Shown: piece by piece, positions 1,091 through 6,980 of the stretch
Layout of the letters: every line of letters begins with the position of its first letter
How positions within the stretch are numbered: the stretch's first letter is position 1
Assembly (NCBI GenBank): GCA_038212375.1
Contig: JBBQUO010000003.1
Coordinates: forward strand, 1 to 45,036
DNA: 45,036 nucleotides
Origin: Minisyncoccia bacterium
Lineage (GTDB): Bacteria; Patescibacteriota; Minisyncoccia; Phycocordibacterales; Zambryskibacteraceae
Direction of reading: 5' to 3'
The notes under the pieces: model-generated
Seen by the model: the letters and a program-made list of their open reading frames with translations, nothing else
What the model was told of the DNA's origin: nothing
Database searches by the model: none
Program-made: the position numbers and the translations under genes

Positions 1091-3160
1091 TTATATATCA
1101 AGATTCGCGAGCTTTGCGTTTGATTGGATAAATGACTTTCGAGACGGAACATCAGAACCCATCAGAATTTCAAATACCTTATCAGCGTCTTGCGCGTCAT
1201 CAACATTCACCTGCTTCAATATTCTACGAGCAGGATCCATCGTAGTTTCCCAGAGCTCTTCAGCATTCATTTCTCCGAGACCTTTGTAACGCTGGATGGA
1301 GATTTTCGAGGTTCTTGCTTTTAGCTTAGAGTTGTCAGCTTCATCGGATTCATCTGCTGACTCTTCGGTTTCTTCCACCACAATAGACTCTGAAGTTTCT
1401 TCGACTTCGTCTGGATTTACTTTTCCAACAATCTTATTTTTCTCTTCATCAGAATATGCATAGAAAATTTCTTTTCCTTTTTTGATCTTGTAGAGTGGCG
1501 GCTGCGCGATATAGATATGTCCTGCATCAATGAGCGGTCTGAAATATCGATAAATGAGAGTGAGGAGCAGAGTACGAATGTGAGCACCGTCGACATCCGC
1601 ATCGGTTGCGATGATAACTTTGTGATATCGAAGTTTACTAATATCAAACGTATCTCCGATCGCAGTACCGAGAGCGATGACGAAGTTTTTGATCTGCTCA
1701 CTACCAAGCATTCTGTCGAGGCGAGCTCTTTCGATATTGAGAATCTTTCCTCGCAGCGGCAGGATAGCCTGTGTACGACGATCTCTTCCCATTTTTGCGG
1801 TACCACCTGCAGAATCTCCCTCCACAATGAATACTTCAGACTCCTCTGCAGACTTACTCTGACAGTCAGCAAGCTTTCCAGGAAGGGTCATCCCCTCGAG
1901 CGCTCCTTTTCGAAGCACTGAATCCTTTGCGGCCTTTGCAGCTTTGCGGGCCTTGAGGGCCAAAACTACCTTATTAATGATAGCTCTCGCATCATCAGGA
2001 TTCTCTTCTAGAAAGGCTCCGAATGAGTCATTAAAGACCGATTCCACCATACTGCGAGCTTCTACAGTACCGAGCTTTGCTTTGGTCTGTCCTTCGAATT
2101 GTATCTCTTGGATCTTTACCGAAATAACCGCAGTAAGACCTTCAAGCACGTCGTCTCCAGTGAAATTGTCTTCACTTTCTCTGATCAGGTTATTTTTTCT
2201 TGCATACGCATTGAGCGAACGGGTGAGTGCAGTCTTAAATCCAGTAACATGAGTTCCTCCTTCTGAGTTATAAATATTGTTTGCAAATGGAACGATGCGA
2301 GAAGTAATATCATCAACATACTGAAGAGAAATTTCTACGGATTCGTACTCAGTAGTCTTCTTTTCTATATAGAAAATATTTTTGTGGATCGGCTTCTGAG
2401 TTTGATTATAAAACTTTACAAGAGAAAGCAAACCTCCTTCGAAATAGAAGGACATCGATGGCACATCAAGGCCAAGATCACGAATGTAATACTCTGGATC
2501 GATCTTACCTTTATACTCACGAGCATCTATCACTCCGATACGAAGACCCTTGACCAGATACGCTTGCTGACGAAGGTGATTTACCACTCGGTTAAAATCA
2601 AAGTTTGTATCAGGGAAAATAGTCCCGTCTGGCTGGAAGGTAATGATGGTTCCGTTACGCTTCGATGCTGCTACCTTTTTTACGGGAGCTTTTTTCTTTC
2701 CAATTGCATATTCCTGCATGTAGTGCCCACCATCGCGGTGCACCTCTGCTTTTGTGTAGAGAGAAAGTGCATTTACTACTGAAGCTCCCACTCCGTGCAA
2801 ACCTCCAGAAACTTTGTACCCTTCTCCACCAAACTTTCCTCCAGCATGGAGAGTGGTCATGATTGTTTCAAGAGCAGATACCTTGGTCTGTTTATGAACA
2901 TCCACAGGGATACCGCGTCCGTTGTCTACAACACGAATCTGATTACCCGGAAGAAGCGCTACCTCAATGTCATTTGCATAACCGCCCATCGCTTCATCAC
3001 GGGAGTTATCGAAGACTTCCCAAATGAGGTGATGGAGACCATCGGGACCCGTAGTACCGATATACATTCCCGGGCGTTTTCGTACAGGATCAAGACCTTC
3101 GAGGACTTGGATTTGTTCAGCTCCGTAATTAGACTTCTTTTTTGGTTCTTCTTTTGCCAT
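1091..3160 (-). CDS. gyrB: DNA gyrase subunit B
   Basis: LEGLDPVRKRPGMYIG, GHKL ATPase, VEGDSAGG, PLRGK, DADVDG TOPRIM, QRYKGLGEM. Likely start MAKEE at 3160. Confidence 0.97.
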   Translation of the reverse strand: MAKEEPKKKSNYGAEQIQVLEGLDPVRKRPGMYIGTTGPDGLHHLIWEVFDNSRDEAMGGYANDIEVALLPGNQIRVVDNGRGIPVDVHKQTKVSALETIMTTLHAGGKFGGEGYKVSGGLHGVGASVVNALSLYTKAEVHRDGGHYMQEYAIGKKKAPVKKVAASKRNGTIITFQPDGTIFPDTNFDFNRVVNHLRQQAYLVKGLRIGVIDAREYKGKIDPEYYIRDLGLDVPSMSFYFEGGLLSLVKFYNQTQKPIHKNIFYIEKKTTEYESVEISLQYVDDITSRIVPFANNIYNSEGGTHVTGFKTALTRSLNAYARKNNLIRESEDNFTGDDVLEGLTAVISVKIQEIQFEGQTKAKLGTVEARSMVESVFNDSFGAFLEENPDDARAIINKVVLALKARKAAKAAKDSVLRKGALEGMTLPGKLADCQSKSAEESEVFIVEGDSAGGTAKMGRDRRTQAILPLRGKILNIERARLDRMLGSEQIKNFVIALGTAIGDTFDISKLRYHKVIIATDADVDGAHIRTLLLTLIYRYFRPLIDAGHIYIAQPPLYKIKKGKEIFYAYSDEEKNKIVGKVNPDEVEETSESIVVEETEESADESDEADNSKLKARTSKISIQRYKGLGEMNAEELWETTMDPARRILKQVNVDDAQDADKVFEILMGSDVPSRKSFIQSNAKLANLDI

Positions 3161-3241
3161 TGAGGATCTTCTGAATATGAAATAATTAGACCTTAATGGT
3201 ACCAAAACTAGCGCCTAAAAGATAGGGCTTTGGGGAGAGAT

Positions 3242-3838
3242 TTAACCTATACATATAGCCATTTTTCGCCAATATTTGATGAATTCTTCCAAAGAGATGA
3301 AAAGGTCATTACGAGCTTCTCCTGGTGCATCTGAATCGTGATAATAAAAGCCCGTGAGGGTGGCGTTGTTATCTTCAAAACCAACGAGCAGTATCGTGTG
3401 AAATGACTTCCCTTCTGAGAGACCTGGTAGTACCGATACGATTGGAAGCCCTCCAGTTTCAAGGATTGCAACAATTTTCTTGAGACCATGCTGCAGCATT
3501 TCACCCGCAAACTGACTAGGGCCAATAGAACCATCGAGATTAGCACTCATAGATTTGAATTCTTCTCGATAGGCTGTCACTCCGTAGTTATGTGCCATCA
3601 TAACGATGACATCATGCGGTGAACCATGTCGAAGGGATTCTTCTGAAATGAGACCTCGCCCGAGCATCGAGTTACTATGAATCACTGCTTCATGCAGAAG
3701 ATTGTCTATCGAAGGTGCACGACCTGGTACTAGATAGTCGAGTGCCATTTTGAGACAAACAACGGTACAAGCTTTACTTTGCCATTCTTTTTTCGTGACA
3801 TCGTGAAATTGTGAATAATAGGGAACGTGTAATTTCAT
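3242..3838 (-). CDS. C39-like (papain-fold) peptidase
   Basis: LHVPYYSQ...ACTVVCLKMAL...HTILLVGF...YYHD pattern of Peptidase_C39_2-like proteins. Likely start MKLHV at 3838, 7 nt after the pheT stop. Confidence 0.75.
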   Translation of the reverse strand: MKLHVPYYSQFHDVTKKEWQSKACTVVCLKMALDYLVPGRAPSIDNLLHEAVIHSNSMLGRGLISEESLRHGSPHDVIVMMAHNYGVTAYREEFKSMSANLDGSIGPSQFAGEMLQHGLKKIVAILETGGLPIVSVLPGLSEGKSFHTILLVGFEDNNATLTGFYYHDSDAPGEARNDLFISLEEFIKYWRKMAICIG

Positions 3839-3845
3839 ATGTTTT

Positions 3846-6176
3846 TTATCTAACCTGCCAGCCGTCTTTTTCATTGAGTATCTGAGTAGCTCTTTCTATG
3901 ATTGGATGTATTTCCTCATCTGAAAGAGTTTTGTTCATTGATTGAAATACGAGTCGATACGCATATGAAGTTTTCTTTCCTTCAGGAAAACTTTTTGTGA
4001 ACGTATCGAACAACATGTAGTTTGCAAGAAGCCCTTTAGCCTCAGCTTTTACTACCTGTATAATACCCTGTTTGTCTTGACCTTCTGGAATAAACACCGC
4101 GATATCACGAAGCACCACTGGGTATGGTGAATACGCTTGGAATTTAGTATCTACAAGTTCTTCATGAGAAACATAATCATGCACTTCAGGAAGAGTAGCG
4201 AGGCTATCTGAGAGGTTTGCCTCGAACACACCTTCATGTTCTTTGAAATGAGGTTCGACCCCAAGGTTTTTCAGCTTTTGTATTACCTCATCACTCTTTC
4301 CACCCGCAAAAGCGACTGCCGTATATTCGCCGCCCTTAGTAAACACATTTCCAATTTCAAATATATGCACGTTTGAAAGTCCGAGAAGGTCTACATTGTG
4401 AGTATTAAGAGTGAGCGCTTCAGAAATTCCAAAAGTTAGGTTTGAGCGAAGAAATGCTTTGTCCGATGCAATAGGGTTTGCAAGCTCAACTTCCCCACTA
4501 CAGCGAAATGCGTACGTTATTACTTCAGAATATCCCGCACCTACAAAAAAACTTCGAAGCATGTCTGTGTAGTATTGATTCTTTTCAATAAGAACGGGAT
4601 AACTCCAGGGAGTAATCGGTTTTGCATGCACATTTTCGTAGCCATATATTCTTCCGATTTCTTCTATCAGATCTTCTTTTATACGCAAATCCAAGCGCTC
4701 TACAGGGACGGTGACAACAAATCGTGGCTCAGCAGACAATACCCTTCTATACCCGACAACTTTTTTGAAAGACTCACTCTTTGAAATTTTTTCTTCGACT
4801 ACAACGCCAGTTTTTCTTGTCGCGTGAATGACAAGACCGTCACCCATATAGAGGCCCACATGATCTACCCCTTCTTCTACGATTGTACCCTTTTGCCACT
4901 CAATACTTTCATAAAATATTTTTCCATTATCAGAATTTGAAAATACTAGATCTCCTGGAAGTAAATCTTTCTCTTCGATTGCATCACCAAATACCATTTG
5001 ATCGACAGACATTCGAGGGATTGATACTCCAACTTGAGCACAAAGAAATGCTGTAAATGAAGAACAATCAAAGTAGTTTGGTGCATCAAAAAGCACACTT
5101 GCTCCGTGTTTATAGGGAACGCCAATATACTGTGGAGCACTCTTCACAATAAGCTCTTGTGGATATATATATGCAAAAGTAAATCCTCTATCGAGCAAAA
5201 TCTTTTCCACATCTTTCTGAGAAATGGTTATACCAAGCACCTCACTAATCTGGGAAAGTGATACTCCGGCCTTGAATAGGTTTGCCTTTCGAGGATAGAT
5301 ATCGACAATACCTTCGATCCGAGTCTCACCTGTACCTGCAATATCTCGGATCAAATCGGCCACCATTTTGAGCGACCATGTTGTAAGCTCTGGCGTTATT
5401 TCATTTTCAAATCGTACCGATGCATCAGTTCGAATCCCGAGTCTTTTTGCAGTTTTACGAATATTTACTGATTCGAAATTCGCTGATTCTAAAATAATGT
5501 GTTTTGTATCCTTGGTGATTTCGCTCGCCTTACCACCTTTGATTCCTGCAATACCAAGAACTGATCCGCTTACCCCGTCTGCAACAACGAGAGTATCGGG
5601 AGTAAGTTTGTATTCCTTATTACCGAGCGCAGTAAAGTGCTCCACCTCCTTTGCCTTGCGAACGACAATCTGCCAACCTTCACCTGATTCACTGAGTAAA
5701 TTTCTGTCATAGGCATGGAGAGGTTGGCCGAGCGCAAACATGACGTAGTTGGTTGCATCTACAATGTTATTAATAGATCGTTGACCAATGGTACTGAGTC
5801 TTTCTTTGAGCCACGCAGGACTTTCTTTGACCTCAATGTTTTCAATCACAAGACTACTAAATCTTTTGCAGAGTCCTTGCTCTAATACTTCTACCTTGAG
5901 AACATTTGATTCTGGAGCATCAATACTTTTATTACGATCTTTTTCCTCCTTTATTCTGAGATTGGCATGGATGGAAACCTCCAGAGCAATACCGCGATGA
6001 GAAAGACAGTCATGACTACGATCTGGAAGCACTTTGATATCGAGGAGCGTGTCAGTGCCCTTGTCTTCAATAGACTCAACCTCAAATGAGTGCATCGTCA
6101 AAAGTTCTCCAATCTTTTCTGGAGTTGGAAGTGTTTCTTCAAAATAATCTTGGAGCCAGTTATACGATATTTTCAT
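3846..6176 (-). CDS. pheT: phenylalanine-tRNA ligase beta subunit (lacks B2 OB domain) with inserted NlpC/P60 domain
   Basis: MKISYNWL, PDRSHDCLSHRGIA, B3/4 (INNIVDATNYVM...GQPLHAYD), B5 (DLIEEIGRIYGY), C-terminal FDX-ACB (RDIAVF...YRLVFQS). Residues ~339-480 are NlpC/P60-like. Confidence 0.95.
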   Translation of the reverse strand: MKISYNWLQDYFEETLPTPEKIGELLTMHSFEVESIEDKGTDTLLDIKVLPDRSHDCLSHRGIALEVSIHANLRIKEEKDRNKSIDAPESNVLKVEVLEQGLCKRFSSLVIENIEVKESPAWLKERLSTIGQRSINNIVDATNYVMFALGQPLHAYDRNLLSESGEGWQIVVRKAKEVEHFTALGNKEYKLTPDTLVVADGVSGSVLGIAGIKGGKASEITKDTKHIILESANFESVNIRKTAKRLGIRTDASVRFENEITPELTTWSLKMVADLIRDIAGTGETRIEGIVDIYPRKANLFKAGVSLSQISEVLGITISQKDVEKILLDRGFTFAYIYPQELIVKSAPQYIGVPYKHGASVLFDAPNYFDCSSFTAFLCAQVGVSIPRMSVDQMVFGDAIEEKDLLPGDLVFSNSDNGKIFYESIEWQKGTIVEEGVDHVGLYMGDGLVIHATRKTGVVVEEKISKSESFKKVVGYRRVLSAEPRFVVTVPVERLDLRIKEDLIEEIGRIYGYENVHAKPITPWSYPVLIEKNQYYTDMLRSFFVGAGYSEVITYAFRCSGEVELANPIASDKAFLRSNLTFGISEALTLNTHNVDLLGLSNVHIFEIGNVFTKGGEYTAVAFAGGKSDEVIQKLKNLGVEPHFKEHEGVFEANLSDSLATLPEVHDYVSHEELVDTKFQAYSPYPVVLRDIAVFIPEGQDKQGIIQVVKAEAKGLLANYMLFDTFTKSFPEGKKTSYAYRLVFQSMNKTLSDEEIHPIIERATQILNEKDGWQVR

Positions 6177-6179
6177 ATA

Positions 6180-6980
6180 CTAAAATTGATTGATGAGTCT
6201 CAAATCACCTTCATACAGCATACGAACATCAGGGATGCCGTACTTGAGCATCGCAAGCCTATCGATTCCACACCCGAATGCAAAACCTCGATACATTTTG
6301 GGATCGATCTTCATAGCCATAAGTACTTTCGGATGCACCATTCCAGCTCCCATTATCTCGATCCACCCAGTCCCTTTGCAGGTACTACAATCCTTACCTG
6401 TGCCTCCACACTTAAAGCATGACATATCGATTTCTATTCCTGGCTCAACAAACGGAAAAAAGCTTGGGCGAAATCGTGTCGCTACCTTTGTGCCAAATAA
6501 TTTTTCAAAATATTCTTCGAGTACAAACTTGAGATTTGCAAGTGATGCATCCTTTTCGATAAGTAGTCCTTCGAGCTGAAAGAATTGCGCCTCATGAGTA
6601 GCATCAGTTGCTTCATGACGAAATGTTTTTCCTGGCACAATAATGCGAATTGGTGGGGTATGACTTTCTGCATATCGTACCTGTACAGGAGACGTGTGTG
6701 TTCTGAGAAGTGCTGAGTACCTTGGGACAGACTGCGCATGGCGCTCGTGTATGTTGCTAGTTGTTTGTTGTTGATTACTCACCCCTTTAAGCCAAAACGT
6801 ATCCCACATATCTCTTGCTGGGTGGTGCGCAGGAATATTGAGAGCGTCGAAGTTGTAGTATTCTGACTCGATTTCGGGACCACTTGCCACCGCAAAGCCC
6901 ATTTCACGGAAAATATCTGTCGTTCTTCCAATAACGATATTGAGAGGGTGCATATGGCCTTTTTGTGAGGTGTCTTCCAT
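6180..6980 (-). CDS. pheS: phenylalanine-tRNA ligase alpha subunit (N-terminally shortened)
   Basis: GHMHPL, HPARDMWDTF, LLRTHTSPVQ, FFQLEGL, FRPSFFPFVEP, CxxC...CxxC, GFAFGCGIDRLAML. Confidence 0.96.
   Translation of the reverse strand: MEDTSQKGHMHPLNIVIGRTTDIFREMGFAVASGPEIESEYYNFDALNIPAHHPARDMWDTFWLKGVSNQQQTTSNIHERHAQSVPRYSALLRTHTSPVQVRYAESHTPPIRIIVPGKTFRHEATDATHEAQFFQLEGLLIEKDASLANLKFVLEEYFEKLFGTKVATRFRPSFFPFVEPGIEIDMSCFKCGGTGKDCSTCKGTGWIEIMGAGMVHPKVLMAMKIDPKMYRGFAFGCGIDRLAMLKYGIPDVRMLYEGDLRLINQF

Follow-up and report, generated by a model that had tools for sequence, protein, structure and literature searches.

A predicted NlpC/P60 peptidase domain nested within the β subunit of phenylalanyl-tRNA synthetase in Patescibacteria

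What is a peptidase domain of the kind that cleaves peptidoglycan doing inside a subunit of a cytoplasmic aminoacyl-tRNA synthetase? This question is raised by the pheT gene of a Minisyncoccia bacterium (Patescibacteriota; Phycocordibacterales; Zambryskibacteraceae), studied here in a window of 45,036 nucleotides (nt) that comprises positions 1 to 45,036 of contig JBBQUO010000003.1 (assembly GCA_038212375.1). Aminoacyl-tRNA synthetases often gain extra domains. An initial annotation, made from the letters of the sequence, had noticed in this gene, which encodes the β subunit of phenylalanyl-tRNA synthetase (PheRS) on the reverse strand (3846..6176), an NlpC/P60 cysteine-hydrolase domain inserted in frame into domain B5 with an intact Cys-His-His triad and neither stop nor frameshift. 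Both observations hold: the open reading frame (ORF) 3846-6176 is unbroken over 776 amino acids (aa), the codons of the triad are in place, and Pfam matches NLPC_P60 (PF00877) to residues 352-477 (E 7.1e-15, 55.3 bits against a cut-off of 23, profile positions 1-104 of 105), with a corresponding hit at 4746-5123 (56.9 bits) in the scan of the whole genome. The annotation knew of no characterised example of such a protein, and none was found in print: a full-text literature search, supplementary files aside, returned no publication on NlpC/P60 domains in PheRS, so the nesting of this domain in a synthetase subunit is apparently an undescribed arrangement.

Apart from the insert, the protein has the features of a bacterial PheRS β subunit. 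It passes the TIGR00472 pheT_bact equivalog of NCBIfam (432.5 bits against a cut-off of 402.65) and, like the T. thermophilus subunit (2iy5_B/1pys), contains B1, B3/4, B5, B6/7 and B8, with pheS adjacent. The B3/4 editing domain occupies residues 103-281 (5334..5870, reverse strand; Pfam B3_4, E 1.4e-58), the catalytic-like module residues 532-615 by Pfam, and the B8 or FDX-ACB anticodon-binding domain residues 683-776 (3849..4130, reverse strand; Pfam E 2e-19). The pheS gene for the α subunit (6180..6980, reverse strand; Pfam tRNA-synt_2d, E 1.9e-94) ends 4 nt upstream of pheT. Unlike the T. thermophilus type, B5 is interrupted, a B2 (tRNA_bind) domain is absent, and the α subunit, 266 aa in its longest possible ORF, lacks the N-terminal coiled coil; PF01588 is present in just 1 of 107 insert-bearing PheTs (P0040, 903 aa). 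The genome of the window (657 kb, 92% complete) contains one PF00877 domain and one B3_4 locus, which makes 3846-6176 its sole PheT and its sole NlpC/P60 protein. The same genome has only two Mur_ligase_M loci.

How the domain sits in B5 can be read from insert-free relatives and from a structural model. PheTs of the same order without the insert align to residues 1 to ~336 and ~485-776 of the window protein, and in one of them Pfam finds B5 uninterrupted at residues 301-365 (profile positions 2-67). In the AlphaFold2 model of residues 295-520, built from an input of 62 aligned sequences, B5 comprises a strand (301-306), two helices (307-314 and 320-329) and a second strand (333-337), followed after the insert by a strand (485-490) and a helix (500-515), so that the strands 333-337 and 485-490 abut the insert. 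Because of the alignment gap and these modelled strands, the boundaries are set at ~338-484 (4725..5165, reverse strand). The B5 domain is thus present but split. Its second half, residues 485-515 (4632..4724, reverse strand), overlaps a Pfam B5 match that covers profile positions 35-67 only (residues 481-513, 51.8 bits against 28.6), while the first half, residues ~301-337 (5166..5276, reverse strand), is predicted from the model and the insert-free relative, on which Pfam placed it; when the 226-aa fragment was aligned by MAFFT to insert-free PheTs of full length, this half came out misplaced. An NlpC/P60 domain of ~147 residues replaces the short hairpin turn of B5. The span initially given, 4737-5162, does correspond to residues 339-480 and needed only this refinement, whereas the sequence APQYIG starts at residue 347 and not 339. 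The model is of high confidence (mean predicted local distance difference test score, pLDDT, 96; predicted template modelling score, pTM, 0.91), and from the high pTM B5 and the insert are predicted to form one compact unit. Guanine plus cytosine content dips slightly within the insert (0.35-0.38 versus 0.41-0.43 in the flanks). Among the Logan contigs of one sequencing run, a 669-nt piece spans 4711-5379, bridging the upstream junction and extending 14 nt past the downstream one, and positions 4692-4710 lie outside every piece listed; this run is probably the source sample and hence not independent support. No RNA sequencing runs containing the region were found.

The arrangement is not a peculiarity of one genome. 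Among proteins as long as PheT, the insert region as query matched 107, that of the window included, and PF00877, B3_4 and B5 occur together in all 107. Their inserts share 40-67% identity, and their database names are mostly 'C40 family peptidase' or 'PheT-related', with Yonathbacteria, Paceibacterota or Parcubacteria as the source. The architecture is therefore widespread in Paceibacteria-type Patescibacteria and already present in public databases under automatic names, and its occurrence in 106 other public PheT proteins excludes chance and also the chimeric assembly that the initial annotation had named as a possible refutation. When 1.84 billion representatives were searched, 95 matched at E <= 1e-30, and the best 150 representatives at 50% identity consist of 106 with PheT N-terminus, insert and C-terminus, 14 apparently truncated PheTs and 30 with the insert only. 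Genome sets were also surveyed; these are samples, their members are relatives and not independent, and absence in them means absence for the queries used. The insert is found in PheT in 14 genomes, the window's included, of a sample of 201 from the class. In a sample of 61 genomes from the order, PheT carries the insert in 14 and lacks it in 38, a monomeric PheRS is the only one in five, and four gave no match. With 38 of 61 genomes carrying an insert-free PheT, the module must be accessory, PheRS working without it in most of these relatives.

Conservation of the putative active site is nearly complete. Cys371 and His439 are invariant in the 107 PheTs, as are the flanking motif residues Asp392 and Asp409, and His451 is kept in 101, being replaced by Tyr in three, Phe in two and Gln in one; the survey of relatives that had been suggested thus recovered both the architecture and the triad. 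The length of the insert is 150-171 residues in 106 of the 107 proteins. Mean pairwise identity in an alignment of 46 sequences is 0.49 for the insert, compared with 0.52 for B3/4, 0.48 for B8, 0.42 for B1 and 0.32 for B6/7, and the insert is thus about as conserved as the editing domain. As a separate observation, Asp370 is changed to Ser in 7 of the 107 PheTs and Arg388 to Ser in 7 of the 107, and one clade of stand-alone proteins (described below) shows the same pair of changes plus Gln393 to Lys, which points to a sub-variant whose substrate pocket is altered.

To which class of enzymes does the insert belong? Foldseek found 62 matches to the model in the PDB at E <= 0.001, and those listed are NlpC/P60-family cell-wall hydrolases. 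The best is the C. difficile autolysin 7cfl (target-normalised TM-score 0.89-0.91, root mean square deviation 1.6-2.0 Å, 35% identity), and the others listed include the gamma-D-Glu-diamino-acid endopeptidases 2evr and 2hbw, MepS, CwlO, LytE, RipB and the B. cereus protein 3h41. At the sequence level the insert aligns end to end with 7cfl_A (E 6.7e-16), 4xcm_A and 8v3w_H through the FDCS, HVGxY and IHA motifs, with its three triad residues at the catalytic positions of these solved enzymes. Together with conservation and the codon check, this alignment identifies Cys371 (FDCSSF; 5064..5066, reverse strand) as the predicted nucleophile, His439 (DHVGLY; 4860..4862, reverse strand) as the predicted general base and His451 (VIHAT; 4824..4826, reverse strand) as the third residue of the triad. 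Fold and triad are the same as in NlpC/P60 DL-endopeptidases such as the catalytic domain of Acd24020 (7cfl), E. coli MepS/Spr, B. subtilis CwlO and LytE and the cyanobacterial enzymes 2evr and 2hbw, and so is the order of the motifs, PYKxGA, FDCS, PRxSxxQ, GDLVF, HVGxY and IHA. However, the PheT insert differs from these enzymes in having 14-20 extra residues between GDLVF and HVG and in being nested in a cytoplasmic synthetase subunit, without signal peptide or wall-binding domain. The insert is a classical, non-permuted NlpC/P60 (C40) domain that is probably catalytic.

The permuted LRAT/YiiX type (PF04970, PF05708) was considered and rejected, because in the insert the Cys precedes the His, which is the non-permuted order. 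Neither family matches the window PheT in Pfam or appears among the fold matches shown, and YaeF of NCBIfam gives a weak score of 15.1 bits against a cut-off of 279. Matches to LRAT or C92 in four relatives (the free proteins L020 and L017, as well as L079 and P0228) stay below their cut-offs (e.g., LRAT 23.0 against 24.3, C92 24.6-26.1 against 27), and in the stand-alone protein P0109 C92 reaches 30.5 bits, above its cut-off of 27 but far below the protein's own NLPC_P60 score of 76.8. The defence models of PADLOC matched neither the insert nor the partner protein described next nor three relatives.

The insert has a companion. Directly downstream of pheT lies a gene for a C39-like cysteine peptidase, probably cytoplasmic (3242..3838, reverse strand), the longest ORF of which is 3242-3874 (210 aa). 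As its 23 homologues are mostly 198 aa long and start with MKLxVPYYSQ, the true start is probably Met13 at 3838, 7 nt after the stop codon of pheT. The protein matches Peptidase_C39_2 (PF13529; 32.4 bits against a Pfam cut-off of 24), keeps Gln22, Cys36, His159 and Asp180 invariant among 20 sequences, and gives a model with pLDDT 94 and pTM 0.90, the nearest fold of which is the double-glycine C39 peptidase domain 6mpz (target-normalised TM-score 0.76-0.77, E 4e-5), followed by a C39-like protein from B. anthracis and further papain-like enzymes. NCBIfam contains no match for it, and no PDB sequence was significantly matched by a profile of the C39-like alignment (best E 0.16). It thus resembles C39 and Peptidase_C39_2 proteins (6mpz, ComA, B. 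anthracis 3erv) in its Gln/Cys/His/Asp set and nearest folds, although these matches are weak (13-16% identity), and it is a stand-alone protein of ~198 aa, predicted to be cytoplasmic, and not part of an ABC exporter.

This gene tracks the insert. Apart from the window's own genome, 8 of 13 insert-bearing genomes in the class sample and 7 of 13 in the order sample have it directly downstream of pheT, which, one genome being common to both, amounts to 14 of 25, and it follows an insert-free pheT in none of 16 loci. In the ten loci examined that lack it, pheT is followed by gyrB, directly or after one small gene, in six (L040-L043, L045, L057) and by different ORFs within the fetched flank in the other four (L039, L051, L053, L054). 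Moreover, NlpC/P60 and C39-like domains are fused in one polypeptide in three cases (L032, P0228, P0232), and their genes are adjacent in a further one (L026). The C39-like gene is a co-inherited partner of the insert.

The module also exists outside PheT. Stand-alone proteins of 198-233 aa consist only of the first half of B5, the NlpC/P60 domain and the second half of B5, collinear with PheT residues ~301-515 and 46-57% identical to the insert; in one of them (P0170) the second B5 half exceeds the Pfam cut-off (34.3 bits against 28.6). A more distant group, free NlpC/P60 proteins of ~150 aa, is present in 17 genomes of the class sample and shares 26-37% identity with the B5-NlpC fragment of the window over the alignment (31-43% in local genome matches). 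Both the stand-alone and the free forms retain the nucleophile Cys and the base His without exception; by inspection they start directly at the domain and have no hydrophobic N-terminus. Twelve of 16 free forms (L015-L031) have a net charge of +15 to +25 and an isoelectric point of at least 9.9, while the median net charge is -4 for the PheT-embedded and -3 for the stand-alone domains, which are acidic. The wide spread, the C39-like partner gene and this independent B5-NlpC unit go beyond what had been noted initially. A precedent for a β-subunit domain that became an independent protein is CtdA, a stand-alone relative of PheRS B3/B4 as described in PMC12268091; unlike the B5-NlpC proteins it derives from B3/B4 and not from B5, and that source describes its tRNA editing activity as demonstrated. 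A third, more distant group comprises NlpC/P60 proteins of 202-220 aa (L079:3959-4621 and L080:3932-4540, both on the forward strand), the flanks of which resemble B5 halves by eye and in alignment, Pfam reporting only NLPC_P60; one comes from a genome with an insert-bearing PheT (G215), the other from one with an insert-free PheT (G242).

Several of these proteins are encoded beside a PheRS of another type. In all 6 loci of family f24 (L015-L017, L020-L022) a free NlpC/P60 gene directly precedes the gene for a monomeric PheRS, overlapping it in three. This monomeric enzyme is composed of a PheS core and FDX-ACB (376-402 aa); each f24 genome searched has a single strong match to the PheS core (PF01409), and B3_4 was found in none of the five searched. 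At locus L082 a stand-alone gene (6001-6615) is 86 nt from, and divergent to, the gene of a 391-aa monomeric PheRS (4739-5914). A VanY-type D-Ala-D-Ala carboxypeptidase gene (L082:6610-7509, reverse strand; PF02557, E 5e-15) lies between the stand-alone gene and gyrB, and this order matches that of pheT, the intervening gene and gyrB in the window, with VanY in the place of the C39-like gene. In family f13 (L034, L035) a C39-like gene and a gene for a Cys/His protein are located ~2 kb from the monomeric PheRS gene. The Cys/His protein (L035:4129-4638, forward strand; L034:5317-6231, reverse strand), the gene of which adjoins the C39-like one, is matched by neither Pfam nor NCBIfam and aligns to the profile of the stand-alone B5-NlpC proteins with an hhalign probability of 66% (E 5.7e-5); possibly it is a strongly diverged partner of NlpC/P60 or CHAP-like type. 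On the other side, ten free NlpC/P60 genes outside f24 (including L019, L023-L025 and L027-L031) have no PheRS gene within ~5 kb, the genes scanned beside nine of them being unrelated (DUF5667, IMPDH, IF-2, methyltransferase, ribulose-phosphate epimerase, MatE, Bro-N), and the five genomes of the window's order in which monomeric PheRS is the only PheRS (L074-L078, of 61) contain no NlpC/P60 or C39-like gene within ~5 kb of it.

The history of the module was addressed with two trees. In a maximum-likelihood tree of 59 NlpC/P60 domains, from which every second PheT sequence and the long-branch sequence L031 were left out and in which the bootstrap is not fully settled, the PheT-embedded domains, the stand-alone domains and the stand-alone-C39 fusions form one group (ultrafast bootstrap 100, Shimodaira-Hasegawa-like approximate likelihood ratio test 99), with the ~150-aa free forms outside it. 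Within this group stand-alone and embedded sequences are interleaved, with six changes on the tree of which at least three are forced by well-supported branches, implying that the module moved out of PheT, or back into it, on several occasions. A PheT tree of 38 sequences, computed by a quick search after removal of the insert columns, has eight changes of insert state, at least three of them forced by well-supported branches. Combined with the single origin of the insert, these changes argue for repeated loss: the insert arose once, in a single ancient insertion, and was apparently lost several times. Gene order is conserved as pheS-pheT-(C39)-gyrB, and where the PheRS is monomeric its gene stands upstream of gyrB, in the ancestral place of pheST. 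Because they share this conserved position, the linkages of the module to PheRS genes may not be independent and could stem from one ancestral locus.

What, then, might the domain do? The initial annotation proposed a moonlighting PheRS and listed several candidate roles, which do not fare alike: hydrolysis of muropeptide-type substrates is the one that fits sequence and fold best, self-processing finds no counterpart in a Hint or intein family of Pfam and the insert is modelled as an ordinary domain excursion, and a role in editing as a replacement of the resident activity is unlikely. The editing-site residues of T. thermophilus PheRS named in the text of PMC3275996 (Asn250, His261, Gly315, Glu323 and Glu334) correspond, by alignment to 2iy5_B, to N143, H154, G211, E219 and E230 of the window PheT, and T142, likewise conserved, corresponds to T. 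thermophilus T249. The first five are conserved in 46, 46, 46, 42 and 45 of 46 sequences, respectively, and with the B3/4 editing residues intact the insert is unlikely to be a replacement of editing in cis. Neither is it a replacement of peptidyl-tRNA hydrolase (Pth), as this enzyme is encoded in the genome of the window.

The explanation that we tentatively prefer, at a little short of an even chance, is that the insert is a cytoplasmic peptide hydrolase of the gamma-D-Glu type that works with the C39-like partner and is carried by PheRS β. The ancient insertion put the NlpC/P60 domain into the hairpin turn between two B5 strands. Cys371 would serve as nucleophile and His439 as base, with His451 orienting His439, and the bond cleaved would be an amide of the gamma-D-glutamyl type in a small peptide, for example a peptidoglycan stem peptide that is taken up or recycled. 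The C39-like peptidase encoded 7 nt downstream may make a second cut. PheRS β would be mainly a carrier that fixes expression and location and not a catalytic partner. In addition to sequence and modelled fold, the VanY-type gene beside one stand-alone protein and the presence of a single PF00877 domain in the genome count in favour of this proposal. Several observations weigh against it. A pure carrier role leaves unexplained that the association with PheRS is maintained where the architecture differs, as with the free NlpC/P60 gene upstream of monomeric PheRS in all six f24 loci, the stand-alone gene of L082 and the C39-like gene of f13. The strongly basic free forms would suit RNA binding. 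Mur-ligase matches per genome are alike in insert-bearing (2-5) and insert-free (0-6) genomes, so these genomes give no indication that peptide salvage is especially needed. Finally, the nearest folds of the partner are double-glycine leader peptidases and papain-like enzymes, weak at E 4e-5, and the protein is no known muropeptidase.

From some of these observations a link to tRNA, an unlikely alternative although the main rival, draws its strength. Papain-like enzymes act through acyl-thioester intermediates. The NlpC/P60 cysteine could thus attack the ester of a PheRS-bound aminoacyl- or peptidyl-tRNA to form a Cys371 thioester, which would be hydrolysed, in proofreading or rescue, or the Phe or acyl group would be passed to an amine acceptor such as a peptide or a cell-wall precursor; the C39-like protein would process the product, and free and stand-alone forms would act in trans on monomeric PheRS that lacks editing. 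The recurrence of the PheRS link (nested in PheT, in f24, in L082 and, for the C39-like gene, in f13), the absence of B3/4 from the f24 genomes searched and the cationic free forms are all consistent with this, and so is the finding of D-aminoacyl-tRNA deacylase (DTD; PF02580) in none of the 61 genomes of the order. However, the absence of DTD is common to genomes with and without the insert and thus does not track it, and the recurrent associations possibly reflect the one inherited locus discussed above. In sequence and fold the insert is akin to classical peptidoglycan DL-endopeptidases and not to permuted LRAT-type acyltransferases. The window PheT, with its editing site intact, is not missing proofreading in cis, Pth is present, ten free NlpC/P60 genes have unrelated neighbours, and the monomeric-PheRS genomes of the order have neither peptidase gene nearby.

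Much less probable is that the domain is a structural or regulatory appendage that has no catalytic activity and docks PheRS to a protein or to the envelope, or binds a peptide ligand that regulates PheRS. Non-catalytic NlpC/P60 domains do exist, RipD being among the fold matches, and the model of B5 and insert as one rigid unit (pTM 0.91) would agree with such a function. Nevertheless, binding-only relatives usually lose the catalytic residues, whereas here Cys and His are invariant in all 107 PheTs, likewise D392 and D409, and Cys and His also in the free and stand-alone proteins. Next to no probability attaches to a chimera of assembly or to an intein-like element that would splice itself out of the mature protein, as only the odd architecture and the slight dip in composition speak for these, against 106 other public PheTs with the same junctions, 106 full-architecture representatives, an insert of 150-171 residues in all but one of 107 proteins, a Logan contig across the upstream junction, the lack of a Hint or intein family in Pfam and a model that is that of an ordinary nested domain.

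The finding matters under either of the two leading explanations. A peptidoglycan-type peptidase that is predicted to be catalytically intact resides in a synthetase subunit in more than 100 sequence clusters of Patescibacteria with tiny genomes, and the module survives as an independent protein where the β subunit is replaced by a monomeric PheRS. If PheRS β is a carrier, this would be a way in which reduced genomes ensure the expression of an accessory enzyme, by attaching it to an essential protein. If the chemistry is linked to tRNA, a new reaction would connect the synthesis of Phe-tRNA with peptide or cell-wall metabolism and would represent a new catalytic class among aminoacyl-tRNA-dependent enzymes.

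The remaining features of the locus concern its surroundings. The gyrB gene (1091..3205, reverse strand) is the conserved downstream neighbour and serves as synteny anchor. Promoter-like and terminator-like sites around the operon are not commoner than in shuffled sequence.

The monomeric PheRS of the relatives deserves attention in its own right. Like the mitochondrial enzyme (3cmq; TIGR00469) it consists of a PheS core followed by FDX-ACB, but unlike it, it is bacterial, and the window's own genome is without such an enzyme. Its scores are below the NCBIfam cut-offs (217 against 258 for pheS_mito and 229 against 300 for SrmL). In several families of Paceibacteria a mitochondrial-type monomeric PheRS is apparently the sole PheRS. 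A 2010 review names mitochondrial PheRS as the only monomeric class II example, and a search of the literature for monomeric PheRS in bacteria or Patescibacteria returned nothing relevant. Bacteria that rely solely on this type of enzyme bear on the origin of the mitochondrial form. Two further observations were made next to these genes. A SET-domain gene (L020:6703-7221, forward strand; PF00856, E 3e-13) lies directly downstream of an f24 monomeric PheRS gene, and in f13 endonuclease genes are located between the peptidase genes and the monomeric PheRS gene (L035:4638-4928, forward strand; L035:5887-6564, reverse strand; L034:4029-4760, reverse strand), those of L035 being GIY-YIG and LAGLIDADG by Pfam and that of L034 LAGLIDADG only by reading of the ORF translation.

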